Source of the DNA: Candidatus Bathyarchaeota archaeon
GTDB taxonomy: Archaea > Thermoproteota > Bathyarchaeia > 40CM-2-53-6
Direction of reading: 5' to 3'
NCBI GenBank assembly: GCA_963733055.1
Contig: CAVTBR010000001.1
Location: forward strand, 672,001-736,000
Length of the DNA stretch: 64,000 nt
Made by a program: the position numbers and the translations under genes. Positions 119-43,512 of this stretch are shown here, piece by piece (position 1 is the first letter of the stretch; each line of letters begins with the position of its first letter). The notes beneath the pieces were generated by a model. That model ran no database searches, was not told the DNA's origin, and saw only the letters and a list, made by a program, of their open reading frames with translations.

Positions 119-1447
119 ATGCTGGTTGCTCGATTGATTCAGGGCTTGGATTGGATTCAGAAACGAACTGGGCTTGACCCCGGAGCGAACTCTGATGCCC
201 TGAGTTTTGTGCAGACCACATCCTCGACCATGTGTATGGAATGCCGGGGGAGTCGCATGCTCTGCGGAAAGGCCTACTGCCCAATCCTCTCCAAAGCTGA
301 CATGTTAGTCAAACACTTACCGAAGCTCTCAAAGGAAGAGATCGATGGTTCCAGTCCACCTGGCGTGTTCGTGGGTCGTGTGGGCTATCCGAAAGTCTAC
401 CTCGGTCCACTGATTCCTCCGGAGAAAGGTGACACACGAATTCTAGATACGCCAGAATTATGGATGGGTATCAGTATTCAAACCATAATCGATTATCGAT
501 TCCGTTTGATCCGCGGCAAATCGCTGGTTGAAGTTCACGACGCGCAAGATCCCGGGAGGTATTTGCTTGATCTTCACGACTTGGCGCTGTCCTCGGCTTC
601 GGTTGAAGTGAACGCGAAATTTAAGAAGAAACCCAGAATGGCTGTAACGTTGAGTGAGGAAACACAACCCTTCGGCCCATCGGCATTGATACAGAATCTG
701 GAGATCGCTCCAAGTTCTGGGGACCAGAAGCTCGAAGCCGCATACTATGACGGCGACTTGCTTGCTGCAAACGGCATGGTCGAATTATACCGGGATGGGG
801 TTGAAGTCTCGCGCATTCAGAAGACCCTCAGTCTCGGCATGCTTGGTGTTCAGGATCAAAGAAAGGTTGTTCCAACCCGCTTGAGCATAACCGCGGTCGA
901 CGACACTCTATCTAAGCACCTACTCCAAAAGATCTACCACTACCCAACCCTCGACAAGTATCAGGTCTACAAGTTTGAGTATCTTGATAACTGGTACGCC
1001 GCGATCTTGTCCCCGCGAAATTGGGCTTTCGAGTGGATTGAAGCCTGGTTTCCAGGAACGGCTTGGAATGAGGCTGGGAGCGTTCCAGCACTAATGGGTG
1101 ACCATGAACCTTACGAAGGGAGGACGACCTACGCGTCGGTGGGAGGGTGCTATTACTCCACTAGACTTGCGGTGGCTGAGGCTTTAGAGCGTATGGGTAA
1201 ACAGGCGTCAGCTTTGGTTCTCCGTGAAATCCGGCCGGGATACGTTCTTCCTGTAGGCGTCTGGAATGTGAGGGAGAGCGTTCGCGCGGCGCTTAGAACT
1301 CAACCCACCGTATTCGACGACTTCCAACACGCGCTCCAGTTCGCCTGTAGAGATTTCAGAATTCAGCCGGGAGTCTGGGTTAGGAATAGTCACTTGATTC
1401 GCGAAGAAATGTTTCAGACTCGTCTGAATCAATACTTTCGTGTATGA
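119..1447 (+). CDS. nreA: Nre family DNA repair protein (NreA)
   Basis: N-terminal CxxCxGxxxLCGxxxCP cluster, GSSPPGVFVGRxGYPKV motif, C-terminal PCNA-interacting PIP box QTRLNQYF. Confidence 0.92.
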   Translation: MLVARLIQGLDWIQKRTGLDPGANSDALSFVQTTSSTMCMECRGSRMLCGKAYCPILSKADMLVKHLPKLSKEEIDGSSPPGVFVGRVGYPKVYLGPLIPPEKGDTRILDTPELWMGISIQTIIDYRFRLIRGKSLVEVHDAQDPGRYLLDLHDLALSSASVEVNAKFKKKPRMAVTLSEETQPFGPSALIQNLEIAPSSGDQKLEAAYYDGDLLAANGMVELYRDGVEVSRIQKTLSLGMLGVQDQRKVVPTRLSITAVDDTLSKHLLQKIYHYPTLDKYQVYKFEYLDNWYAAILSPRNWAFEWIEAWFPGTAWNEAGSVPALMGDHEPYEGRTTYASVGGCYYSTRLAVAEALERMGKQASALVLREIRPGYVLPVGVWNVRESVRAALRTQPTVFDDFQHALQFACRDFRIQPGVWVRNSHLIREEMFQTRLNQYFRV

Positions 1448-4406: not shown

Positions 4407-4504
4407 ACTCTTCTTGCACCACGCGTCCCCTCAACTCCTGCATAACCCTTAAGACTACCCCGCCCGTGTTCATCCGTTACCGTTTGAACAGAGTCGACTT
4501 GAAA

Positions 4505-5104
4505 ATGTCAGAGGAAGAAGGACATGCAACCGGCAGAGCCGGCGTTTCGGCACCCAACGTAAAAGTCAGCGAACTCGGCCCCTACTCGAAACAGGTCAAT
4601 ACATCCGTCAAAGTCGTCCAGAAGGGCGAGGCTAGAGAAACAGTGTCACGACAAGACGGTACAACACACCGTGTGTTAGATGCACTTGTCGGGGATGATA
4701 CTGGAACCATCTACATGACGCTCTGGGACGAAAACATCGACAAAGTCAACGAAGGCGACAGCGTCAACGTCAAGAACGGTTACGTGAGACCGTTTAAGGG
4801 ATCAATGCGCCTAAACATTGGACGATACGGATCCCTGGAACCCGCTGAGACCCCACTTGGCGACGTCAACACAACGAACAACCTATCCGACAAAGTAGTC
4901 GAAGAACAACCCTACCGTTCCTATGGAGGCGGAAGACGCTTCGGAGGCGGCGGTGGCGGCTACGGCGGCGGACGGGGAGGCGGGTACGGCGGACGAGGCG
5001 GCGGCGGTGGCGGTTACGGACGAGGCGGCGGTGGCGGCTACGGCGGCGGACGAGGCCGGGGCAGAAGCTACGGCGACAGAGATCGCGGACGCGACCGATA
5101 CTAG
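4505..5104 (+). CDS. ssb: Single-stranded DNA-binding protein (single OB fold, crenarchaeal SSB type) with Gly/Arg-rich tail
   Basis: OB motif LVGDDTGTIYMTLWD...KNGYVRPFKGSMRLNIGRYG; GGRGGGYGG tail; start moved to ATG 4505. Confidence 0.88.
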   Translation: MSEEEGHATGRAGVSAPNVKVSELGPYSKQVNTSVKVVQKGEARETVSRQDGTTHRVLDALVGDDTGTIYMTLWDENIDKVNEGDSVNVKNGYVRPFKGSMRLNIGRYGSLEPAETPLGDVNTTNNLSDKVVEEQPYRSYGGGRRFGGGGGGYGGGRGGGYGGRGGGGGGYGRGGGGGYGGGRGRGRSYGDRDRGRDRY

Positions 5105-5528: not shown

Positions 5529-6401
5529 TTGGCAATATTATCCGAGTTGGAAACGAACAAACTATTCGTCGGCGACATCAACGTCCGAAAATCCGTTGGG
5601 GATATAAATGAACTTAAACTCTCCATAGAAGAGAAAGGCATCCTTCAACCGCTCCTAGTCAGGCCCTTAAAGAATCGGTTCGAGATCGTGGTTGGTTCAA
5701 GGCGCTACGAAGCGGCCAAGTCCTTGGGCCTAAGGAGGGTACCCGTGATAATTAAACCGATGAGCGATACGGAAGCAGTCTCACTCTCACTAGTAGAGAA
5801 CATTCAGAGAAGCGACCTTGAGCTCGAAGAAGAGGCAGAGGGAGTGCTAAGGTTGATGAAGCTCGATCAGAAACGATTTGCCAACGCGAGATCAGTTGCG
5901 AAAGTTCTCGGCCGTTCGGAGAGCGCCGTCCGAGAACTCCTCGAAGCTTACGAATTAACCTTCAAACTTCGAGAAAAAGGAATGCAGATTCACGCAGGCA
6001 GAGCCCCACCTGAAGAGCAACGGCAACGAGGGGAAGCAATCCCACTCAAGCACACTGAACTCATCGCACGTGCCATAAAGTCTGCAGAAGTGAAAAGGCT
6101 GCCGACGCGCGAGTTCGACCGCAAGCTTCCAGAAATTGTCAGAGCAATAGCTCCTCTCCCTGAAGTGGATGCGAGGAAAGTGGTGGATCGCTTCAAGATG
6201 TTCCCCGAAAAATCGATTCAATCGATAAAGGAAGAAGCTCTTGCAAAGCAGACTGGGGTTGCTGTCAAGGTATACTTCTCACCAAAGATCGCCCGAGCCC
6301 TGAACCAAGCTGCCGAGGAACGAGACCTCTCTGAAGAGGAACTAGCCTCAATCGCCGTAGAAGAATGGCTCGTGCTGAAAGGATACTTGAAATCCGTCTG
6401 A
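5529..6401 (+). CDS. ParB/RepB/Spo0J-family protein with C-terminal RHH-like segment
   Basis: SIEEKGILQPLLVRP...IVVGSRRYEAA...SLVENIQRSDL; HTH-like VAKVLGRSESAV; C-terminal VKVYFSPKIARALNQAAEERDLS. Confidence 0.88.
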   Translation: MAILSELETNKLFVGDINVRKSVGDINELKLSIEEKGILQPLLVRPLKNRFEIVVGSRRYEAAKSLGLRRVPVIIKPMSDTEAVSLSLVENIQRSDLELEEEAEGVLRLMKLDQKRFANARSVAKVLGRSESAVRELLEAYELTFKLREKGMQIHAGRAPPEEQRQRGEAIPLKHTELIARAIKSAEVKRLPTREFDRKLPEIVRAIAPLPEVDARKVVDRFKMFPEKSIQSIKEEALAKQTGVAVKVYFSPKIARALNQAAEERDLSEEELASIAVEEWLVLKGYLKSV

Positions 6402-7846: not shown

Positions 7847-8260
7847 GTGCCCAGATTGTCCGCCCGAACGGTCATCGGCGTTCTGATGTCGATATTCGGT
7901 TTGTTACTGCTTTTGTACAGTGGCTACGAATTTAACAACCTTTTCTTCATCGATAGGATGCTTGCCGTTTCTGATATTCCAGCCTACAACAGCTTCGTTG
8001 TAACACCATTCCTACTTGGAATCCTAGCCCAATTGGATGGGTCCGTAGTTTTGGGGCTAAAGCGCTCGTTCAGCCTAAGCCTTCACCTGCTTGGCAATCT
8101 TGTGTGGCTATATGCGCTCTACCTGCTCTACGACAACCTGGCAATTCCCATCGCTGACGTCGCAGCATATCATCAAGTCTTCTTGCTAAGTTTCTTGGGC
8201 TTGATCTTCTTCGTCATAGGTGTAATAGCCAACGACGTACCCAAACGCAAAACACCTTAA
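7847..8260 (+). CDS. Four-helix membrane protein
   Basis: Four hydrophobic segments; directly follows the GT2 gene. Confidence 0.7.
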   Translation: MPRLSARTVIGVLMSIFGLLLLLYSGYEFNNLFFIDRMLAVSDIPAYNSFVVTPFLLGILAQLDGSVVLGLKRSFSLSLHLLGNLVWLYALYLLYDNLAIPIADVAAYHQVFLLSFLGLIFFVIGVIANDVPKRKTP

Positions 8261-8865
8261 CAACGAAATCTCCGTTCCCTCGCGCTTCTCCTTGACACAT
8301 GTGCGTTCCCTTTGAGATAGAATCTCCAGAATCTATTCAGGCCCTCTCGGATTCCCACTCGAGGCGAACTCCAAATCTCCAAGTCGTTTTTCCGGGAATC
8401 TCCAATGAAAAGCGGCCCGCCGATGGTCATATCCTGCTCATTCAGCGACTTATCTATCGCAAAAGCCTGGGTAAGCTTACCAGGGCCGTTCGTCAACTCA
8501 GAATCCAGCACATTCGGTCTGAAACGCCTCATTGCGTTAATTCCTTCTACAGGCTCAAGGGCTCGGAGTAAGACCGCTCCAGGAGTTCCGGCCTTCTGCG
8601 TTGTAACGTTCAAACAAAAATGATGCCCGTAGGTGAAGTAAACGTAAGCGTGTCCCGGCTCTCCAAACATGGGTGCATTGCGAGGAGTCAAACCCCGAAA
8701 GGCGTGACTTGCCGGATCATCGTGTCCCCGATATGCCTCGACTTCCACAATTCGACCAGTCAAGCGTTCATGGCCCTTCAATCTAATGAGATATTTTCCC
8801 AGAAGATCAGGAGCAACTTTCACGGTGTCCCTCGCGAAGAAGGTTGAAGGGAGTAGTTTAGCCAT
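8257..8865 (-). CDS. DNA-3-methyladenine glycosylase (MPG/AAG family)
   Basis: GRIVEVEAY, DPASHA, YVYFTYG, AVLLRALEP, GPGKL, PRVGI motifs. Confidence 0.93.
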   Translation of the reverse strand: MAKLLPSTFFARDTVKVAPDLLGKYLIRLKGHERLTGRIVEVEAYRGHDDPASHAFRGLTPRNAPMFGEPGHAYVYFTYGHHFCLNVTTQKAGTPGAVLLRALEPVEGINAMRRFRPNVLDSELTNGPGKLTQAFAIDKSLNEQDMTIGGPLFIGDSRKNDLEIWSSPRVGIREGLNRFWRFYLKGNAHVSRRSARERRFRC

Positions 8866-13922: not shown

Positions 13923-14063
13923 GCCGGGGTAGCCTAGCTAGGTAAGGCGACAGAGTCCCAGCGGATACTTGGGACGTTGAGCCTCGAGATCTGCTAACAG
14001 TTTGGGCCAAGATAGCTGTTGGTCCTCTGGGCCTCGTGGGTTCAAATCCCACCCCCGGCGCCA
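13923..14063 (+). tRNA. tRNA-Ser(CGA) with two introns (~13954-13981 at 30/31; ~13989-14013 at 37/38), CCA encoded
   Basis: Acceptor GCCGGGG/CCCCGGC+G+CCA; T arm GTGGG-TTCAAAT-CCCAC; variable arm GGTCC/GGGCC; removing both inserts gives ACAGC-CTCGAGA-GCTGT. Confidence 0.9.
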
Positions 14064-33483: not shown

Positions 33484-36301
33484 TTAATGCTGCAGAAGCT
33501 TAGCAACCCTGTTTGAGGTGGCTAGGGCTGCTAGGAGGAGAGTTGAGAGGACGATTGTCGCTGAACTGATCATCAGTATGCTTGAGGACGCGAGCGCTTC
33601 ACCGACTGTGAGTGCGGTGATTCCACCCAACACGGTTAGCGCGAGATATTTCTCCATTGCAACCAAACGACGAAGCCGTCGCACTCTTGATCGGATCAAG
33701 CTGAGTGGTAACCCGAGGTAGAAGGCGCCGATTAGACTACTGGCAATCAAACCGGATAATAGAACTGCTAATTCGGGGAAGCTGGCTGTTGCGGAGTAAA
33801 GGTTCGAGGTTAGGTAGAGGACGCCTACAAGCGGGTAGAGCACTGCTTTCATTACTGTTCGTTCCGCTGAATGTGCGGATATGTAATTTGCCACGCCTGG
33901 GCTGAAGGAGTAGTACCAGGCATTGAACACGACCATGAAACTTGAACCTGCTTGAGTCTTCATGATTGACTTGTCGCGGAAGTTGCGGAGTAGCTGAACT
34001 TCCGGCGCGACTTGAGAGCCGTATGTCGCCGTGGCGATCAAACAGACCGGCGCACCCGCGGCCGAGGATGTGCTGCTGGTGCTAGTCGTAGTTGCTGGCG
34101 TCGTAATGAGAACGCCAACGTTGGTGCTGTGAGTAAGCGAACCGCTCGTTCCAGTAACCTGCACTGTAAACGAACCCGTTGATGAAGAAGCCGTCGCGCT
34201 GATCGTGAGAGTTGACGTCGCGGGCGTTGCAGTCGGAGTAACCGGGCCAGGGAGAGTTATTGAAACCCCAGTAGGCGCCGTGCCAACCCACGAATAGCTC
34301 AACGTGACGGCGGAATTGAATCCGTTGATCGCGCCGACACTAATCGTTGACATTCCACTGCCACCTTGAACGAGCGATACCGTACCAGGAATCGCAGTAA
34401 TTGAGAAGTCCGCCGTTACAGTGACGGTTAGCATGAGAACTTGCGAATGAGTAAGGCTGCCGCTTGTGCCGGTGAATGTTATCGAAGATGTTGAGGCTGG
34501 TGTTCCTGAATCAACACTGACCGTCGCAACTGAGGAAATGGTACCACCCGAGGGTGGCGTTACCGGATTTGGATTGAAGGAGACATGTACGCCAGCCGGT
34601 AATGATCCATAGCTAAGAGTAACGGGAGAATTGAAAGATCCGATCGAAGTTATCGTGACTGTATCCATTCCTGAACCTCCTGCACCCACGCTCAGGGTGG
34701 GGGAAGTTAGCGAGATGGAGAAATCAGCGCCGGAAGTGATTGTAAGTGAGAAAGAGGTTGTGTGGGTCCCAGATGCCCCGGTCCCACTAATCGTGATCGG
34801 AAAGGTTCCTGTGGGAGCGGCTGCCGCAACGTTCACCGTCAACGAAGCGGAGGCGGTTCCCCCTGAAGGGAGAGAGATTGGATTCGGGTTGAATGTCGAG
34901 AAAGTAACTCCACTGGGAACAGAACCCGTCACCGATAAAGTAACTGCACCCGCGAAACTCAATAACGAACTTCCAATGACAGTCACTCCCGCAGATCCTC
35001 CCTGTGCAATCGAAATCGTGGGCGTTGTGACGCTCAGGCTAAAGTCCGGCGTTGTGGGGGTTAGCTCCCCAACTTTGTTTGTTCCGCTTTCGAGGAACCA
35101 AATGTTCCCAGAGGCGTCGGCTGCAACATCATGAAGCTGGCTTCCGCTTCCCGTTGACCACTCCGTGAACTGCCCGTTCGGCAGCTCCGGCACTTGGCCC
35201 GCTCGTGGGCACGACGACATGGGTTGATGGAGCAACTGTTGCTGTTGTTGACGTAGCCGTTCCGGAATTGCTGACAGTGGGCGCGTTTGTTGGTACTGAA
35301 GGAACAACATTGCCTCCCGAGGACGGGTCTAGTTCAGCGACTTTTCCATTCCCCGCATTCTGTGAATCTTCAGCTATCCAAGGATGTTGAGTGAGAGGAT
35401 TGATGCTAACCACTCTTGGGTCGGAGCCTATCGTCGGAATCTGCCATTCCTTAATCGTGTTATCACCACGCAGAACGCCAACATAATTGTCAGCTCCACT
35501 TGCGTCGCTGACACCCTGAGTGTACCAAATTTGACCTAGAGCATCGACGGCTAGAAATCGGCCAATAGCCGACCCGTGAGTTGGTAACGGCCAGTAGGTG
35601 TACTGATCGGTCGCCCTGTCCCATTTGATCAGCGATGAACTCTGGGCAAACCAGATGGTTCCGGGACCAGCGTAGACGCCATTAGCGCCACTCCCCGATC
35701 CGGCAGGAAATGGGTCCTCAAATAAAGTCGCTGAGGAAGGTGTAGAAGGGTCGAAGACTAATTCACCCAGATTGTTTGCTAGAATTTCAGTGAACCAAAC
35801 TCTAACACTTGATCCGGCTGGCTCGACGGAAAGGTATTCTGGGCCGGATCCCGCCTTAACTGGGAATTCGTAGAACGTGTTCGTGCTGGGGAGGAAGACG
35901 AAGATCTTGTTTGTCGTGAACTCTGTTCCCCAAACCTCCACTTGACCATTGAATGTGACGGTAGTGATCCCGGTGGGGTTTGCTGCAGCCGTCGGCAATG
36001 CCCATTCTTGGAACGTACCGGTTGACGGGTCGATGTGCGCGAGGTTGTTCGCGAAGTATTCTAGGAACCAGCAACACTTGCCCGACGGATCCAGGGCCAT
36101 GCCGTAGGGGCCGCTTCCAGAAATTGGGTCAGTCCACTCGGTTAGCGTGTAGCTGGTAGCAGCGTAAACGGGTTTGAGCGGGACGATTCCCATCCCAATT
36201 ATAGAGATAGAAACTAGAAACAAAGACATGAGCAGGAATGCCTTAACCGCGATAGTGCGGTTTCGACCTGCATACGGCTGTCTACTACGAGATGAATTCA
36301 A
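33484..36301 (-). pseudogene. Large surface protein: Vgb-like beta-propeller + Ig-like repeats + CFI-box-CTERM; one frameshift near 35181 (likely assembly error)
   Basis: W(F/Y)xE/Q...EWxxPT repeats; three DFSxS...VTLS...GTSGSLTHS repeats; CLIATATYGS...VQLLRNFRD then TM helices. Confidence 0.8.
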
Positions 36302-37417: not shown

Positions 37418-37876
37418 TTGGCACCACAATTGGCGCTTGAGAACTACAAGAAGAAGAGAAATCTCTCCCGAACCCCCGAACCTGGTCCAAAGGTCAAGAA
37501 GACTGAACAAAATCGCTTCGTGGTGCAGGAGCACCGAGCAACCCGATTGCATTGGGACTTCAGGTTAGAGTTGGACGGAGTGCTGAAGAGCTGGGCGGTC
37601 CCGAAGGGGCCGCCTGAGGAACGGGGACTGCGAAGATTGGCGGTCGAGGTTGAAGACCACCCTGTCGATTACATCACATTCGAAGGCACAATCCCAAAGG
37701 GGGGATACGGAGCGGGCACCGTGAAGATCTGGGATAAAGGGAGTTTCAAGCTGAAGATCCGGACGAAGGACATGTACGAATTCTGGCTCAAAGGCAAACG
37801 GTTGAACGGCAAATATGCCCTCGTGCGGTTCAAAGAAAAGAACTGGTTACTGTTTAAAACGAAAACTGACGATTAA
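37418..37876 (+). CDS. Stand-alone LigD 3'-phosphoesterase (PE) domain
   Basis: RTPEP, FVVQEHRATRLHWDFRLE, SWAVPKGP, EDHP, YGAGTVKIWDKG. Confidence 0.93.
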   Translation: MAPQLALENYKKKRNLSRTPEPGPKVKKTEQNRFVVQEHRATRLHWDFRLELDGVLKSWAVPKGPPEERGLRRLAVEVEDHPVDYITFEGTIPKGGYGAGTVKIWDKGSFKLKIRTKDMYEFWLKGKRLNGKYALVRFKEKNWLLFKTKTDD

Positions 37877-38580
37877 CGGATTAGCATTTTATTAAAATCG
37901 GCCGCCATGTTGGCAGCGTCACCGGTCTCGTCATGCATAAAGTAGACGAAACAGTTCTCTAGGTCGACCGCGAATTTCATCAGTTTCTCTGACCATTCCT
38001 TCAGCTTTCCTTTCGAGTAGCGTTCATGGCGTAGCCTTGCATAGGTGAAGTTGGCAGTCTTCTCGAATACGGGTTTCATATCTTCGGTATCAGCGATGCA
38101 TAGTGCAGCATTGTATTTGGACAGTAGGTTGTTCAATTTGTCACCGAACCATGAGTTGTGTCGAAACTCGATCGCGATGGAAGCCCAATCAGGTTTCTCT
38201 TCGAGAAAGGTTTCAAGCGTCTCATAATCCTGTTTCATGTACGGCGGTAACTGTACGAGAACACACCCAAGCTTCGCCTCAACGGGCTTCAACCCCTTCA
38301 GAAAGAACTCGAACTCAGCCTTAGCGCCTTTCAGTTTCTTGAAGTGGGTAATTTTGCGGCTCGCTTTGAAGCTGAACCTAAAATCTTGTGGCGTTGAATT
38401 GCCCCATTTTGAGGTCGTGGTTTGCGTTGGCATGTGGTAGAAACTGGAATTGACTTCTACGGAGTTCAACTTCTTGGAGTAGGCTTCCAACATTTCGTTC
38501 GATTTTGTGGTTTCAGGGTAGAAGACCCCCTTCCAGCTGGCATAGCTAAAGCCCGACACGCCGACCCAAAATCGCACCAT
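37873..38580 (-). CDS. DUF72 family protein
   Basis: GVSGFSYASWKGVFYP, VEVNSSFY, FSFKASRKITH, QLPP, IEFRH, YARL, VYFMHD; start ATG 38580. Confidence 0.92.
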   Translation of the reverse strand: MVRFWVGVSGFSYASWKGVFYPETTKSNEMLEAYSKKLNSVEVNSSFYHMPTQTTTSKWGNSTPQDFRFSFKASRKITHFKKLKGAKAEFEFFLKGLKPVEAKLGCVLVQLPPYMKQDYETLETFLEEKPDWASIAIEFRHNSWFGDKLNNLLSKYNAALCIADTEDMKPVFEKTANFTYARLRHERYSKGKLKEWSEKLMKFAVDLENCFVYFMHDETGDAANMAADFNKMLIR

Positions 38581-38606
38581 CGCACTCACCCTCAGTCTGA
38601 TTGGGG

Positions 38607-39563
38607 TTACAATACGCACTCTGACGGAGTCTTGTCGAAGCGAAACCTCTCGAACCTAGGCAACCGAAGTTTGCGGTCCCTTGTCATGTTCATATAACCA
38701 ACTTCAACCACTAACTGAGGTTTCACCCATTTGACCGGAGCTGGAGCTTTGACCTCGCCGGGCACAGTTTTAGTTTTCGTTTGAAGCGATTTCAATAGTT
38801 TCATTAATCTACGAATGAGAGCGTCCGTGAACCCGGTCCCCACGTTTCCTAAATGGATAAGCTTTCCATTTCTCTCGTACGCGGCCAATACTAGAGCTCC
38901 GAAGCTAGATGAGCGCAAACCCGCGCCCACTGTGTAACCTGCGACAATGCAATCCAGAGTCTTAACCTGTTTCAGCTTTAGCCAATCTTCGCTTCTCGTT
39001 CCGATCTGGTAGGCGGAATCGGCTTTCTTAGCCATAGCTCCTTCGAATCCGAGCTTTAACGCGTTTTTGAAGTAGGATTTTCCATGCGTGGACACATACT
39101 GACTGAGCAGCATGTGAGGCCCGTTTGAAACTATCTTGGCCAGTTTTTGTCTACGATCTATGAGAGAGCCATTTACGAGGTCTTGGCCGTTCAAATGCAG
39201 AAGATCGAATACTATGTACGTGGTAGGCGTTTTTCTCGAAAGCATTCTAATCTGAATAGGATTGTTCGCGCCGAAACGGTACTGAAGTAGTTCAAAACTT
39301 GGTAACCCTTTGTCGAGTATAACAATTTCCCCGTCGAGAACTACCCTATTTGATTTGACGTTGTTGGCGATTGTTTCGAGTTCGGGATATGATTTTGTGA
39401 CATTTCTCAAATTGCGGTTTTGCAGTTCCACTTTACCGTCTTTGAGGTAGGCGATGCACCTCATGCCATCCCATTTCGGCTCGAAAACGTGTTGCTCAGA
39501 ATCGAAAGGGTCTGATGTTTGCGCCAGCATTGGGCGAATGTTGCGTTCGTCCAGTAAGGTCAA
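38607..39563 (-). CDS. ligD: NHEJ ATP-dependent DNA ligase (LigD ligase domain)
   Basis: PMLA, EPKWDG (motif I), LDGEIV, FDLL, EGAMAK, WLKLK, GNVGTGF, LRLPRF. Confidence 0.92.
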   Translation of the reverse strand: MTLLDERNIRPMLAQTSDPFDSEQHVFEPKWDGMRCIAYLKDGKVELQNRNLRNVTKSYPELETIANNVKSNRVVLDGEIVILDKGLPSFELLQYRFGANNPIQIRMLSRKTPTTYIVFDLLHLNGQDLVNGSLIDRRQKLAKIVSNGPHMLLSQYVSTHGKSYFKNALKLGFEGAMAKKADSAYQIGTRSEDWLKLKQVKTLDCIVAGYTVGAGLRSSSFGALVLAAYERNGKLIHLGNVGTGFTDALIRRLMKLLKSLQTKTKTVPGEVKAPAPVKWVKPQLVVEVGYMNMTRDRKLRLPRFERFRFDKTPSECVL

Positions 39564-40339
39564 CCTTTAGCACTGACTTTGATGCTGGCCTTCAGGGCTT
39601 CCATCAAATCCTTCGTGGCCTCAATCTCCGGAACCTTGGGTTCGAAGACCTCTTCCTTCCCCTTCATTTTGGCTTCTACCATTTCTGTCAACGCTTCCTG
39701 GTACCGGTCCTTGTACTCCTTCAGGTTGAACGGTTTCTTCATGATTCGTATGAGCTGCCCGGCGAGTTCCAGCTCCTCAGGTGAAACTTCGACCGGTTTT
39801 CTGAGTTCTTCAAAGTCGCTCGGGTCCCGGATTTCGTCCGCGTAATGCATCGTCTCCATGAGGATTGAGTTTCCGTAGGGTCGAATGGCTACCAAATGTT
39901 CCCGTTCATGCATGACGACTCTGCCTACGGCGACCTTTCCGTTTGATTGGAGTGCTTCGAGTAGGAGGAAGTATGGTTTCTTTGAGTCTTCAGTAGGGAC
40001 GAGGAAGTAGCCTTTGTCGAAGTAAATCGAATCGAGCTTATCCATGTCAACGAAGCGGAGGATCTCGATTGCTTTGCCGGATTTGATCTCGATCGTTTCA
40101 AGGTCTTTGTTTGTTAGAGCAACGTACTTTCCTTTCTCTACTTCATACCCTCGGAGGATGCTGTTCCATGGGACTTCTTTCTTATCCTTCGCGCAGACGC
40201 GCTTGAATTGTATCGGGCTCTTATCTCTGGGACACAGCAAGCGTAGGCCTACTTTGTGCTCAGAAACTGCTCCGAATCCCTTGACTGGGATGCTGACGAG
40301 GCCGAAGGTTATGGATCCACTCCAAGTAGCTCTTGGCAA
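39560..40339 (-). CDS. ku: Ku DNA-end-binding protein
   Basis: WSGSITFGLVSIPV, RGYE, IYFDKGYFL, MHYADEIR, YKDRY, DLMEALKASI. Confidence 0.95.
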   Translation of the reverse strand: MPRATWSGSITFGLVSIPVKGFGAVSEHKVGLRLLCPRDKSPIQFKRVCAKDKKEVPWNSILRGYEVEKGKYVALTNKDLETIEIKSGKAIEILRFVDMDKLDSIYFDKGYFLVPTEDSKKPYFLLLEALQSNGKVAVGRVVMHEREHLVAIRPYGNSILMETMHYADEIRDPSDFEELRKPVEVSPEELELAGQLIRIMKKPFNLKEYKDRYQEALTEMVEAKMKGKEEVFEPKVPEIEATKDLMEALKASIKVSAKG

Positions 40340-40518
40340 GGTTTGACCGATGGGATGGGGAGACGGGTGTACTTCAACAGTGTTCTTCCAATGCTACCCA
40401 CTTAGCTAAATCTTGCCAAACTCGGCATGGCCGGGCGGATGGTTTAACCCGCAGACAGTGCAATGTTCAATGAAAATAGAACCGTTAGGTTCATCCTCAA
40501 ATTCCCTGGGAACGTTTC

Positions 40519-41415
40519 TTGGCAAATAAAGAACAACTGGTTCGAGTCGACGGCCGCGACCTCAAACTCACTAATTTAGATAAGGTCCTCTGGCCGGATG
40601 AGAAGATAACTAAGGCTGAAGTGATAAAATACTACGCGGACCTAAGCGAGTACATCATATCGTTTCTCAAAGACCGGCCCATAATGACGCGCCGTTATCC
40701 TCAGGGGATAACTGAACAATACTTTGTTCAGAAACACTTTCCCCACGTTCCTGAATGGGTGAAGCTCTTCTCTTTCAAATCCGAACACTATGTTCTCTGT
40801 AACGACCTTCCCACTCTGATTTGGTTAGGAAATCTCGCGGCAATTGAGATCAACCACATGCTCGCGAAAGCACCCAACGTAACCAGACATGACATGGTTC
40901 TCATAGACCTAGACCCACACCTACCGGCCAGTTTCGACGATGCGAGAGTCGCTGCTCGCGGCGTGGCAACCGTGCTTGAACGGTTAGAACTGGAATTCCT
41001 GCTGAAGACGTCGGGTGCAGACGGAATACACTTCCTAATTCCGATCGAACGACGTTACAGTGTTGAGAAGATTAGGAAGTTCGTGTACCTAATCGGAAAA
41101 CTCATCGAGAAAGCAAATCCAGATTTGGCCACCGTGTCAACGAAGGCGGATGGGAAGAAAGGCCACGTGTACGTGGACTTCCTGCAAAACGGTCTAGAGA
41201 AAACGATTACCGCCCCGCTAAGCATTCGGGCACTTCCAGGAGCCCCTGTCTCCTATCCTCTATCAGTCAAACAGTTGGACGACCATAAACTGAACCCACA
41301 AAATTTCACGGTCCGAAAAGCCCCTCGAAAATCCGCTGCGCTCCGAAAGATGCTTCGCATCAATCAACCCCAAGACCTTGGCCGGGTCTTCGCCAAACTG
41401 GGCATTAAGACCTAA
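40519..41415 (+). CDS. NHEJ primase-polymerase (LigD PolDom)
   Basis: LTNLDKVLWP, RYPQG, IDLDP, KTSGxxGIH, VDFLQN, S(I)RALPGAPVSYP. Confidence 0.92.
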   Translation: MANKEQLVRVDGRDLKLTNLDKVLWPDEKITKAEVIKYYADLSEYIISFLKDRPIMTRRYPQGITEQYFVQKHFPHVPEWVKLFSFKSEHYVLCNDLPTLIWLGNLAAIEINHMLAKAPNVTRHDMVLIDLDPHLPASFDDARVAARGVATVLERLELEFLLKTSGADGIHFLIPIERRYSVEKIRKFVYLIGKLIEKANPDLATVSTKADGKKGHVYVDFLQNGLEKTITAPLSIRALPGAPVSYPLSVKQLDDHKLNPQNFTVRKAPRKSAALRKMLRINQPQDLGRVFAKLGIKT

Positions 41416-42543: not shown

Positions 42544-43512
42544 TTAAATTGGAGCTAAACGCTTAATGATTCGTTCCAAGAACGCGGTTCGTTCTTCCAA
42601 CTGTTCTATAGCCGCTTTCTGTTCCCCTATCTGTGCCTGCTGTTCATTATTCGTGGTCGTTAGTTCCTTTATCGCTTGCACTGCGACAGCTAGTATCGCC
42701 AGATGGTCGTAGCCTTCAGCGTAGCCCGGTTCTGCTCGGTCCCAGTCTACGACGGTTGGTAGAACTTTCCCTACTTCTTCAGCTATGAAGCCCATTGTCT
42801 TCTTAGCAGGGGTTTCTTTGCGGTTGTAGGCGACCGGGTGAAGTTGCTTAAGCATCTCAACTCCAGCCGTTAAGGGTTCAATGTTCTCCTTCCAGCGCAC
42901 AGATGAACCCGAGATCCATGCACCTGTCCCATCGCAGTATGCTCCACCATTAAGGTGAATCAGGTGCGAAGGATGAGCCGTACCAACACCGATGTTCCCT
43001 TTCGAATCGATTAACAGTCTTATGGTTCCCGGCGGATTCTCGAGGTAGAACTGCCCTGCCGTTAGCCCGAAACCGTTGTTGGTTCCTCCTACAGCCACGC
43101 GCCATCTCACGTTGTCTCCAGAAAGCCAGTCTACAAGCGCAGTCCTGTCCCGATCTATGCGTGCGACGTTCTTGAACTGTGCAACAAGGTAGCCGCCAAA
43201 GGCCTCTGCGCTGAGAGCGTATTCATTCCCTTCGTCGTTGGTAGCTCGAACACCTATGCCTGAGGAGGAATCACCCTCGACACCAATCCCGCTCTTTGAA
43301 GCGCCATTTACGCCTACGCGGGAATCCGACCAACCTTGGACACCGGTGTTGTCCGAGGAATTACCATAGACGCCCGCCCCGCCTGACGAGTTGCCATAGA
43401 CACCATAACCCAAATCTGAATCACCTTCGACAGCTGTTAAACCTGAGGTACTGGTTGCGCGGAGAACCGGACTCTTTGCGTCAGAGTATGAGGCAGTGGT
43501 CAAACTCATCAC
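42544..43512 (-). CDS. Tail-fibre-like protein with C-terminal intramolecular chaperone (peptidase S74) domain
   Basis: GVxGxS repeats, GNIGVGT, SSVRWKENI, GFIAEEV, QAIKEL plus coiled coil. Confidence 0.85.
   Translation of the reverse strand: MMSLTTASYSDAKSPVLRATSTSGLTAVEGDSDLGYGVYGNSSGGAGVYGNSSDNTGVQGWSDSRVGVNGASKSGIGVEGDSSSGIGVRATNDEGNEYALSAEAFGGYLVAQFKNVARIDRDRTALVDWLSGDNVRWRVAVGGTNNGFGLTAGQFYLENPPGTIRLLIDSKGNIGVGTAHPSHLIHLNGGAYCDGTGAWISGSSVRWKENIEPLTAGVEMLKQLHPVAYNRKETPAKKTMGFIAEEVGKVLPTVVDWDRAEPGYAEGYDHLAILAVAVQAIKELTTTNNEQQAQIGEQKAAIEQLEERTAFLERIIKRLAPI

Follow-up and report, generated by a model that had tools for sequence, protein, structure and literature searches.

A fully split bacterial-type NHEJ gene set with an adjoining DUF72 gene in a Bathyarchaeia genome

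A stretch of 64,000 nucleotides (the window), spanning 672-736 kb on a Bathyarchaeia contig of 1,572,808 bp, was found, as judged from its sequence, to carry a genuine, intact and fully split bacterial-type NHEJ set in which every catalytic residue that was checked is kept. Bathyarchaeota belong to the TACK lineage. The locus is a real NHEJ locus of ordinary mechanism, and its freshest lead is an adjoining DUF72 gene, for which gene linkage suggests a role in the pathway. The cluster is probably a chromosomal, vertically kept archaeo-prokaryotic NHEJ system of Bathyarchaeia, in which each activity has its own polypeptide and DUF72 most likely serves as an accessory.

Gene layout and active-site conservation

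The first-pass annotation had placed all four NHEJ parts within positions 37418-41415 as separate intact genes, and the open reading frames agree. The features of the locus are as follows.

37418..37876, plus strand: PE, a stand-alone LigD-type 3'-phosphoesterase; 152 aa, intact ORF
37873..38619, minus strand: DUF72 TIM-barrel protein (PF01904); 248-aa ORF from the GTG at 38619
38607..39563, minus strand: stand-alone ATP-dependent NHEJ ligase of the LigD ligase-domain type (TIGR02779); 318 aa
39560..40339, minus strand: Ku end-binding protein (TIGR02772); 259 aa
40340..40518, no strand: divergent intergenic region between Ku and Pol; 179 bp, both promoters presumed here
40519..41415, plus strand: Pol, a stand-alone LigD-type primase-polymerase (PolDom; PF21686); 298 aa

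The Ku, ligase and DUF72 genes overlap or nearly abut on the same strand, DUF72 being the last of the operon. The Ku stop and the TTG start of the ligase share a TTGA overlap and Pol is transcribed divergently from Ku, both as originally described. The PE gene, which starts 8 nt downstream of a proline iminopeptidase gene, is convergent as had been claimed, but its partner is not the ligase; the gap between PE and the ligase is occupied by the DUF72 gene, which had been overlooked, and PE is therefore convergent with DUF72, the two 3' ends overlapping by 4 nt. Alignment of the Ku-Pol intergenic region with its relatives showed conserved blocks within the genus only and no motif common beyond it. 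Ku, PE and Pol are each present as a single copy in the 2.88-Mb genome. A multidomain LigD would hold PE, ligase and polymerase on one polypeptide, whereas here they are three separate ORFs on two strands.

Profile searches assigned each protein to its family, and the catalytic motifs EPKWDG, DLD and HRATRLHWDFRLE were located at the places claimed for them. The ligase scored 283.2 bits against TIGR02779 (cut-off 227.75), and its best solved relative was 1vs0_A, the ligase domain of Rv0938 (E 1.1e-45), with KWDG aligned. EPKWDG spans residues 28-33 and contains the motif I lysine, K30; together with LDGEIV, FDLLHLNG, EGAMAKK, WLKLK and LRLPRFERFRFDK, which the protein also carries, it makes up what we take to be the ligase motifs. 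Pol matched PF21686 (LigD_Prim-Pol) with 216.8 bits (cut-off 27.4) and the equivalog TIGR02778 with 206.6 bits, 8 bits below the cut-off of 214.7. In the alignment with its best solved relative, 5dmu_A (E 1.5e-44), the catalytic aspartates D130, D132 and D220 are kept, as are H171 and R59; DLD corresponds to residues 130-132. PE scored 136.4 bits against LigD_N and 189.6 bits against TIGR02777 (cut-off 144), with 3p43_A (E 5.6e-47) and 3p4h_A as its best solved relatives. PE residues H39, H45, D47, R49, H81 and Y85 align with H36, H42, D44, R46, H78 and Y82 of MbaPE, which have been named as catalytic (PMC3082917), and residues 39-51 constitute HRATRLHWDFRLE.

Ku matched TIGR02772 (Ku_bact) with 289.2 bits (cut-off 150) and the solved chains 9vnq_A (E 1.9e-48) and 8v53_A (E 4.3e-47). 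It does end soon after DLMEALKAS (residues 244-252 of 259) and lacks a basic tail, the short C-terminus carrying no net charge (7 basic and 7 acidic among the final 34 residues). There is, however, no support for treating the short tail as an oddity; model positions 1-259 of 259 are all covered, and one solved Ku chain of 295 residues is aligned as far as its residue 286.

The DUF72 protein and its linkage to Ku

The DUF72 protein, a xylose-isomerase-like TIM barrel, scored 204 bits against PF01904 in the profile search (cut-off 25.3) and matched TM1631 (1vpq_A) with an E value of 8.2e-20, the alignment running from residue 17 on. Because of this alignment and those with relatives, the true start is likely to be the ATG at 38580 (residue 14). 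An AF2 model with a pLDDT of 93.9 superposed on 1vpq_A with a Z of 27.9 and an rmsd of 1.9 over 229 residues at 31% identity, and on 1vpy_A with a Z of 25.7. All of the family-invariant polar residues, E55, K85, H92, Q123, E151, R153 and R195, are present. The protein shares PF01904 and the fold with TM1631 (PDB 1VPQ; E. coli YecE family), to which no function is assigned; a structure of the family was released in 2004. Endonuclease IV chains fitted the model no more closely (Z 12.5-13.9) than did sugar epimerases and MbnB (Z 13-14.6). When three DUF72 proteins were searched against Pfam at E values up to 10, DUF72 and noise were returned, with no AP-endonuclease or UvdE match. An endonuclease-IV-like role for DUF72/TM1631 has been proposed computationally only, according to passages of PMC3828134.

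Twenty loci of the class were picked for long contigs and family spread, and DUF72 lay no more than about 5 kb from Ku in 15 of them; it was also near Ku in both loci sampled from another class. The gap to the gene upstream was mostly <40 bp in the class loci. Furthermore, among the best 12 metagenome matches to the DUF72 profile alone, the gene was cluster-linked in all 11 testable loci. The 12 linked DUF72 proteins of the common cassette of the class (described below) group in a single starred clade (100/98), to which the unlinked paralogues of the same genomes do not belong. The two other DUF72 paralogues of the window genome also have repair-type neighbours: one adjoins a 589-aa replicative-type DNA ligase and the other lies two genes from a Y-family polymerase. 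DUF72 genes beside DNA-repair genes elsewhere are mentioned in part of PMC11791011.

This linkage suggests that DUF72 may assist the pathway as an accessory enzyme that processes DNA ends or lesions. Tentatively, DUF72 could be a fifth archaeal NHEJ enzyme, a nuclease or phosphodiesterase that would act at Ku-bound ends to clear blocked or damaged termini, or nearby lesions, beyond the reach of PE, and its paralogues could act likewise in ligase-coupled and translesion repair. If true, the widespread DUF72/YecE family would receive its first function. Titles, abstracts and passages naming DUF72 made no mention of membership in an NHEJ operon, and in the partial texts found no function had been assigned. 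Among the matches listed for YecE and DNA, which mostly concerned Shiga-toxin E. coli and prophages, no DNA-repair study appeared. For a family without a function as far as the literature was searched, the conserved DUF72 partner is a concrete and cheap biochemical hypothesis.

The possibility was considered that the pathway has only the usual four parts and that DUF72 is a passenger, a housekeeping or metabolic TIM barrel that merely sits in the operon. This is a possibility of some weight, although we would not call it probable. DUF72 occurs in 353 of 401 genomes of the class, with or without Ku; since it is near-universal and multi-copy, its mere presence or absence carries no signal. The fold search does not separate it from sugar isomerases, among the 20 class loci, five with Ku of the window type (genera g2, g3 and g15) have neither DUF72 nor PE nearby, and in a bacterial phylum sample the linkage was weak, DUF72 being found within 10 kb of Ku in only 2 of 42 citable Ku-bearing genomes. 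However, a dedicated clade that has stayed beside the cassette in no fewer than seven families from two classes, the consistent linkage and tight spacing described above, and the recurrence of repair-gene neighbours for other paralogues argue against a passenger.

The free tree placed the window-type DUF72 outside the common linked clade. A separate recruitment of the window type was considered and not adopted, one clade not being rejected by the AU test (delta lnL 3.48, p 0.279).

Proposed pathway and known systems

By homology to Methanocella paludicola and mycobacteria, a Ku homodimer would thread onto the double-strand break, the primase-polymerase would extend or fill the ends with a preference for ribonucleotides, the phosphoesterase would remove surplus 3'-ribonucleotides and 3'-phosphates, and the nick would be sealed by the ATP-dependent ligase. 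Ku, ligase and DUF72 would be supplied by one tight operon, Pol by the divergent gene, and PE by the opposite strand behind the peptidase gene. The AP-NHEJ system of Methanocella paludicola, reportedly reconstituted in a 2013 study, likewise has Ku, Lig, Pol and PE on separate polypeptides; the PE active-site residues of the window are identical, and the best solved relative of its Pol bears the name 'NHEJ Polymerase'. However, M. paludicola belongs to the Euryarchaeota, whereas the host of the window is of a TACK lineage. A mechanistic template for the four-part pathway is given in passages of PMC4797286, where the M. paludicola PE shares an operon with Pol and Lig, whereas in the window it is Ku that shares one with the ligase, and with DUF72. 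Bacterial Ku with a multidomain LigD (e.g., Rv0938 of M. tuberculosis) has the same four families and the same motifs, but PE, Lig and Pol are fused there, in ORFs of 813-899 aa (L013-L016), whereas the window has one gene per domain.

That the locus would be new to TACK archaea is not supported. Passages of PMC7554672 describe a complete bacterial-type NHEJ complex in Nitrososphaerales, attributed to bacterial transfer, and Ku of Nitrososphaera and Nitrosocosmicus has been listed (PMC11936186). That set is likewise complete and within TACK but belongs to another class, the comparison being by its published description only.

It is also conceivable, but unlikely, that the parts act mainly outside break joining, in the repair of gaps, abasic sites or ribonucleotides, or in a defence-like handling of mobile-DNA ends. 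Excerpts of PMC4245934 report abasic-site processing by Ku, excerpts of PMC12848934 report mycobacterial antiphage defence by these families, and the interval that contains the cluster varies within the genus. However, the joint presence of Ku and the full trio of end-processing and sealing activities is the hallmark of NHEJ. Moreover, none of the five cluster proteins matched a PADLOC family, and no close relative was seen on viral contigs: the 49 Ku loci there were all at or below 37% identity over full-length matches, and none had DUF72, PE or Pol. A ligase-like neighbour was present in 5 of these 49 loci. One flanking peptidase gave a marginal PADLOC match (E 0.00097). As had been stated, no mobile-element marks are evident, no transposase or integrase being seen among the window ORFs of at least 130 aa.

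Host genome and distribution in the class

The cluster DNA is archaeal and not chimeric, and the host is a member of Bathyarchaeia by record labels, in keeping with the earlier reading of the contig. Archaeal SSU and LSU rRNA genes lie on the same contig as the cluster, the genome has a RadA match of 430 bits, and within the window itself are a gene for Nre and a tRNA with an intron. The named proteins nearest to Nre (89% and 72% identity) bear the label Candidatus Bathyarchaeia, as does a related MAG locus (L010); those nearest to Ku are also labelled Bathyarchaeia or Bathyarchaeota. A conflicting bacterial label is borne by one related contig, L011 (8.7 kb). The composition is ordinary, the tetranucleotide distance ranking at the 93rd percentile among 720 windows and the GC content being 48.9% vs. 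50.6 +/- 1.8%. Of the read sets listed for the cluster, none was RNA, and the best DNA set had a word share of 0.32. None of five genomes checked had an amoA signal, but no control gave one either, so that this result carries little weight.

Two congeners (L041 and L042) have the five-gene block with the same surroundings. The flanking genes are syntenic with congeners both with and without the cluster, and the cluster interval is variable within the genus; AdoMetDC served as the synteny anchor, the M29 peptidase anchor having matched paralogous places and being uninformative. Four genera of the family have Ku of the window type, with identities of 64-95%. That bacterial DNA was misjoined to an archaeal contig, or is a very recent non-functional import, is highly improbable: the parts are bacterial-type, L011 is bacterially labelled and the estimated contamination of the genome is 5.28%, but the cluster is mid-contig with archaeal rRNA genes, its composition is no outlier, its flanks are syntenic in congeners and its Ku type recurs across genera.

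To our knowledge, reviews regard Ku-dependent end joining in archaea as close to absent. The survey does not support a rarity of the set in this lineage: Ku was found in 116 of the 401 genomes sampled from the class vs. 12 of 401 across the phylum, and about one quarter of the sampled Bathyarchaeia species have the full set (109 of 401 above the family cut-off; 60 of 219 high-quality genomes). Public records already bear the name 'Ku protein [Candidatus Bathyarchaeia/Bathyarchaeota archaeon]'. Among the papers listed by the literature search, none dealt with NHEJ in Bathyarchaeia; the matches concerned paired-end read joining, the Nitrososphaerales complex or, by their titles, lignin. No donor of the window Ku emerged, its nearest relatives outside being at 42-48% identity.

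The class has at least two forms of NHEJ cassette. The common one (Pol, Ku, a Lig::PE fusion and DUF72; L047, L050-L059, L090 and L091) has the same four activities and a terminal DUF72. However, its ligase and PE are fused in one ORF of 461-499 aa, whereas they are separate genes in the window; all of its genes are co-directional, whereas the window set is on both strands; and its Ku shares only 34-40% identity with that of the window. In the tree, the Ku of the common cassette groups with Solirubrobacterales-labelled sequences in a starred clade (100/98), with the window type outside. Two Ku origins in the class, which the tree favours, were considered and not adopted; the AU test did not reject a single origin (p 0.087), and the groups had been chosen after seeing the tree. 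The class is a natural place to study the gain of NHEJ, its rebuilding in split or Lig::PE-fused form, and its loss.

Gene content and integrity of the NHEJ locus

The locus is a real, intact and fully split NHEJ set on a Bathyarchaeia chromosome; its genes, the integrity of their motifs, the packing of the operon and the host are all established. The first-pass annotation had described four parts, and Ku, ligase, PolDom (Pol) and phosphoesterase (PE) are indeed all present; the number of open reading frames is, however, five, with a DUF72 protein (PF01904) as the addition. A profile search against Pfam and NCBIfam gave family matches well over threshold for all five, save the strict Pol equivalog TIGR02778, where 206.6 bits fell below the cut-off of 214.7, the sole shortfall among the profile matches.

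Genes of the NHEJ locus (window coordinates)
37418-37876, + strand: PE, 152 aa; LigD_N 136.4 bits, TIGR02777 189.6 bits (cut-off 144)
37873-38619, - strand: DUF72, 248 aa; Pfam DUF72 204 bits
38607-39563, - strand: NHEJ ligase, 318 aa; TIGR02779 283.2 bits (cut-off 227.75)
39560-40339, - strand: Ku, 259 aa; Ku_bact 289.2 bits (cut-off 150)
40519-41415, + strand: PolDom, 298 aa; LigD_Prim-Pol 216.8 bits

The Ku stop and the TTG start of the ligase overlap in the sequence TTGA, as originally read. In its longest reading frame DUF72 overlaps the stop of the ligase; since DUF72 alignments start around residue 14-17, translation more likely begins at the ATG at 38580. The PE and DUF72 genes share their last 4 nt, and a proline iminopeptidase gene ends 8 nt before the PE start.

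The best solved match of Pol was 5dmu_A, 'NHEJ Polymerase' (E 1.5e-44), probably the M. paludicola enzyme described in PMC4797286; in the alignment D130, D132, D220, H171 and R59 are retained. The ligase could be aligned from end to end with 1vs0_A, the ligase domain of Rv0938 (E 1.1e-45); it has K30 within EPKWDG, and the remaining nucleotidyltransferase motifs are also present. Ku matches every position of the Ku_bact model, and its alignment with chain 8v53_A (295 residues) reaches residue 286 of that chain. The Ku of Bacillus has an extended lysine-rich C-terminal tail. The earlier remark that such a basic tail is missing here was accurate, the last 34 residues containing 7 basic and 7 acidic residues, but its absence is a normal family variant and not a defect. 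PE aligned with the solved chains 3p43_A and 3p4h_A, the two accession codes of PMC3082917. Its residues H39, H45, D47, R49, H81 and Y85 are retained and correspond to His36, His42, Asp44, Arg46, His78 and Tyr82 of MbaPE, in which alanine mutants of the first five are inactive (PMC3082917).

The NHEJ systems of M. paludicola and mycobacteria, as described in PMC4797286, are the characterised template for a mechanism. By analogy with them, Ku would bind the broken ends, Pol would fill in or extend them with ribonucleotides, with strand displacement, PE would trim to a ligatable 3' end, and the ligase would seal.

Host and chromosomal setting

The genome comprises 2,884,337 bp in three contigs (96.04% complete, 5.28% contamination), and the window is C1:672001-736000 of a 1,572,808-bp contig. 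C1 has rRNA genes of archaeal type, SSU (1452.5 bits) and LSU, whose archaeal models were preferred over bacterial models of the same clans. RadA scored 430 bits, above a cut-off passed by the four archaeal controls only. The closest named relatives of the Nre protein encoded inside the window (89% and 72% identity) both bear the title 'Nre family DNA repair protein [Candidatus Bathyarchaeia archaeon]'. The length of a 138-nt tRNA and its detection by Rfam but not ARAGORN suggest an archaeal intron.

Other features of the window
119-1447: Nre (Nre_N + Nre_C)
4466-5104: SSB-like OB-fold protein
5529-6401: ParB-N domain protein
8257-8865: methylpurine-DNA glycosylase
13923-14060, + strand: tRNA, 138 nt; Rfam 42 bits, no ARAGORN match
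33484-36301, - strand: two large, secreted-looking proteins rich in Thr/Ser, of 608 and 390 aa, with overlapping ORF ends
42544-43512, - strand: Peptidase_S74 (endosialidase chaperone) protein, 322 aa, glycine-rich, domain C-terminal

The first four of these genes form a loose DNA-handling group that opens the window.

Related loci carry concordant labels with one exception. A metagenome-assembled locus labelled Candidatus Bathyarchaeia (L010) has a Ku 91% identical to that of the window and the five genes in the same order, and the names of two Ku clusters (65% identity) read Ku protein of Candidatus Bathyarchaeia or Bathyarchaeota. The exception is an 8.7-kb contig labelled Candidatus Acidiferrales bacterium (L011), whose Pol, Ku, Lig and DUF72 are 70-88% identical to those of the window, a probable labelling conflict. 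The composition of the NHEJ cluster is unremarkable, with a tetranucleotide distance at the 93rd percentile of 720 4-kb windows and a GC content of 48.9% vs. 50.6 +/- 1.8%.

The gene order in the window is 6PGD, hyp370, hyp608, Vgb-like, peptidase, [PE, DUF72, Lig, Ku, Pol], M29, S74-domain, ICMT, h125, PEP mutase ... AdoMetDC. One congener locus (L042) shares both flanks, and in another (L041) the five genes are placed directly between hyp370 and h125. In the five Ku-negative congeners checked, NHEJ genes were absent between the left anchors and AdoMetDC in all five; the interval measures 1.4-1.8 kb in three, and other genes fill 12-13 kb in two. The comparison therefore places the NHEJ block in an interval that varies in content, with conserved anchors on either side. 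Decay does occur, as the congener genome G019 shows with a Ku remnant of 48 residues (E 1.3e-4). Both Thr/Ser-rich proteins, the shorter a Vgb-lyase-like beta-propeller, are kept beside the variable interval in congeners. The Peptidase_S74 protein is two genes away from the NHEJ cluster; its C-terminal domain type is usual in phage tail fibres. The Pol of L042 (6942-7839) gave matches in two frames joining at about residue 148, which may be a frameshift or sequencing error.

Distribution and two cassette forms

The NHEJ set is common in its class. In samples that include incomplete genomes, so that an absence may be a gap, Ku was found within the order in 7 of 24 other genomes of the same family and 0 of 16 from nine other families; within the class in 116 of 401 genomes (109 over cut-off), 60 of 219 high-quality genomes and 20 of 131 genera, the matches being concentrated in families f1 (31/58), f17 (45/104) and f22 (32/71); and within the phylum in 12 of 401 genomes (E <= 1e-20), only two of them outside the class, both of family f44 (2/32). 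The literature search found no published account of NHEJ in Bathyarchaeia. Elsewhere in the archaea, a complete NHEJ complex is described as gained from bacteria by the Nitrososphaerales ancestor (PMC7554672), Ku is listed for Nitrososphaera and Nitrosocosmicus (PMC11936186), and a preprint reports all four parts in 97 archaeal species of six classes by BLAST, with no TACK group named.

The departure from known NHEJ sets is the conserved DUF72 partner and the occurrence of split cassettes alongside Lig::PE-fused ones. Twenty class Ku loci, picked from the 109 positive genomes for long contigs and family spread, were compared with the window proteins. In the window type, Ku identity across genera g1, g2, g3 and g15 is 64-95%, Pol is divergent from Ku-Lig, and the ligase stands alone (318-326 aa). 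PE and DUF72 are attached only in g1 (L041, L042 and the window); neither lies within ~5 kb in the five g2, g3 and g15 loci, and PE is encoded elsewhere in all five genomes, over cut-off in four. The common type, found in f17, f22, f32, f27, f1/g14 and two f44 loci of another class, has Pol, Ku, a Lig::PE fusion ORF and DUF72 in that order, all on one strand. The fusion ORFs (461-499 aa) were seen at L050-L053, L055-L059, L090 and L091 and among the metagenome loci L099-L110. The ligase precedes PE in this cassette, whereas PE precedes the ligase in the LigD fusions of the bacterial loci L013-L016. No PE lies close to the Pol, Ku, Lig and DUF72 genes in two more loci (f2, f30). Matches were split in L042 Pol, L047 and L049 Lig, and L054 PE, which may be frameshifts.

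In a Ku tree of 50 rows, the window type formed one starred clade and the common type another (both 100/100). The latter lies inside a further starred clade (100/98) with Solirubrobacterales-labelled Ku, a Halobacteriales-labelled MAG and two other proteins; the window type lies outside. This topology favours two separate histories. For this unrooted tree, with groups defined after it was seen, the AU test did not reject a single clade (delta lnL 15.5, p 0.087). Among the outside relatives found, no donor of the window-type Ku was identifiable, because the nearest (42-48% identity) are without names. In the Solirubrobacterales-labelled loci L013-L015, a complete LigD fusion of 813-888 aa comes first and a tandem pair of Ku paralogues, which have diverged deeply, comes after it.

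The DUF72 partner

Several linkage results favour a role of DUF72 in NHEJ. DUF72 was present in 15 of the 20 class Ku loci and in both loci of the other class, and the gap from the preceding gene is usually <=40 bp. A profile built from 12 linked copies and scanned over metagenome contigs gave 80 loci. The 12 best (L099-L110, 45-64% identity) have Lig::PE, Ku or Pol directly upstream in 11 cases and lack an upstream flank in one; in the remaining 68 (36-45% identity) an NHEJ gene was absent from 66 and weak ligase-like matches were seen in 2. In a DUF72 tree of 37 rows, from which a 154-aa ORF (L056) was excluded, the 12 linked copies formed a starred clade (100/98) separate from unlinked paralogues of the same genomes.

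Other results speak against such a role. DUF72 is frequently multi-copy and present in 353 of the 401 class genomes, and is thus no marker of NHEJ. The window-type DUF72 is a long branch apart from the linked clade; since one origin of both was not rejected (AU test, p 0.279), it cannot be claimed that the protein was recruited twice. In the bacterial phylum of L016 (121 genomes), Ku was found in 44 genomes and DUF72 in 97; in the 42 of the 44 Ku-bearing genomes taken in, DUF72 lay within 10 kb of Ku in at least 2 (3.6 kb, 6.2 kb) and within 20 kb in at least 1 more. DUF72 was absent from all three Solirubrobacterales genomes carrying the nearest common-type Ku.

The DUF72 model is a confident TIM barrel (pLDDT 93.9) and matches the two solved DUF72 proteins with Z of 27.9 and 25.7. 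These were followed in the structure search by a plateau of xylose-isomerase-like barrels, in which endonuclease IV (Z 13.9, 12.5, 12.5) and the ASFV AP endonuclease (13.6) rank level with MbnB (14.6) and sugar epimerases (~13.7). The predicted fold allows a DNA-repair nuclease and gives no indication of one. Computational studies describe an endonuclease-IV-like DNA-binding model for Tm1631 (PMC3828134) and an enrichment of DUF72 genes around PolB2 damage-response operons (PMC11791011). Gene linkage alone is the reason to place DUF72 in NHEJ, where our best guess is that it would remove damaged or blocked termini or nearby lesions.

The two other DUF72 paralogues of the window's genome have DNA-handling neighbours, which also counts in favour of a role.

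DUF72 paralogues and their neighbours
L067, 5174-6943 (-) and 7137-7988 (+): 589-aa three-domain DNA ligase and divergent DUF72 paralogue
L068, 2452-3546 (-) and 5008-5820 (-): DUF72 paralogue two genes from a Y-family polymerase

The same genome has a third ligase (530 aa) after a FEN1/XPG gene (L069, 3112-5745).
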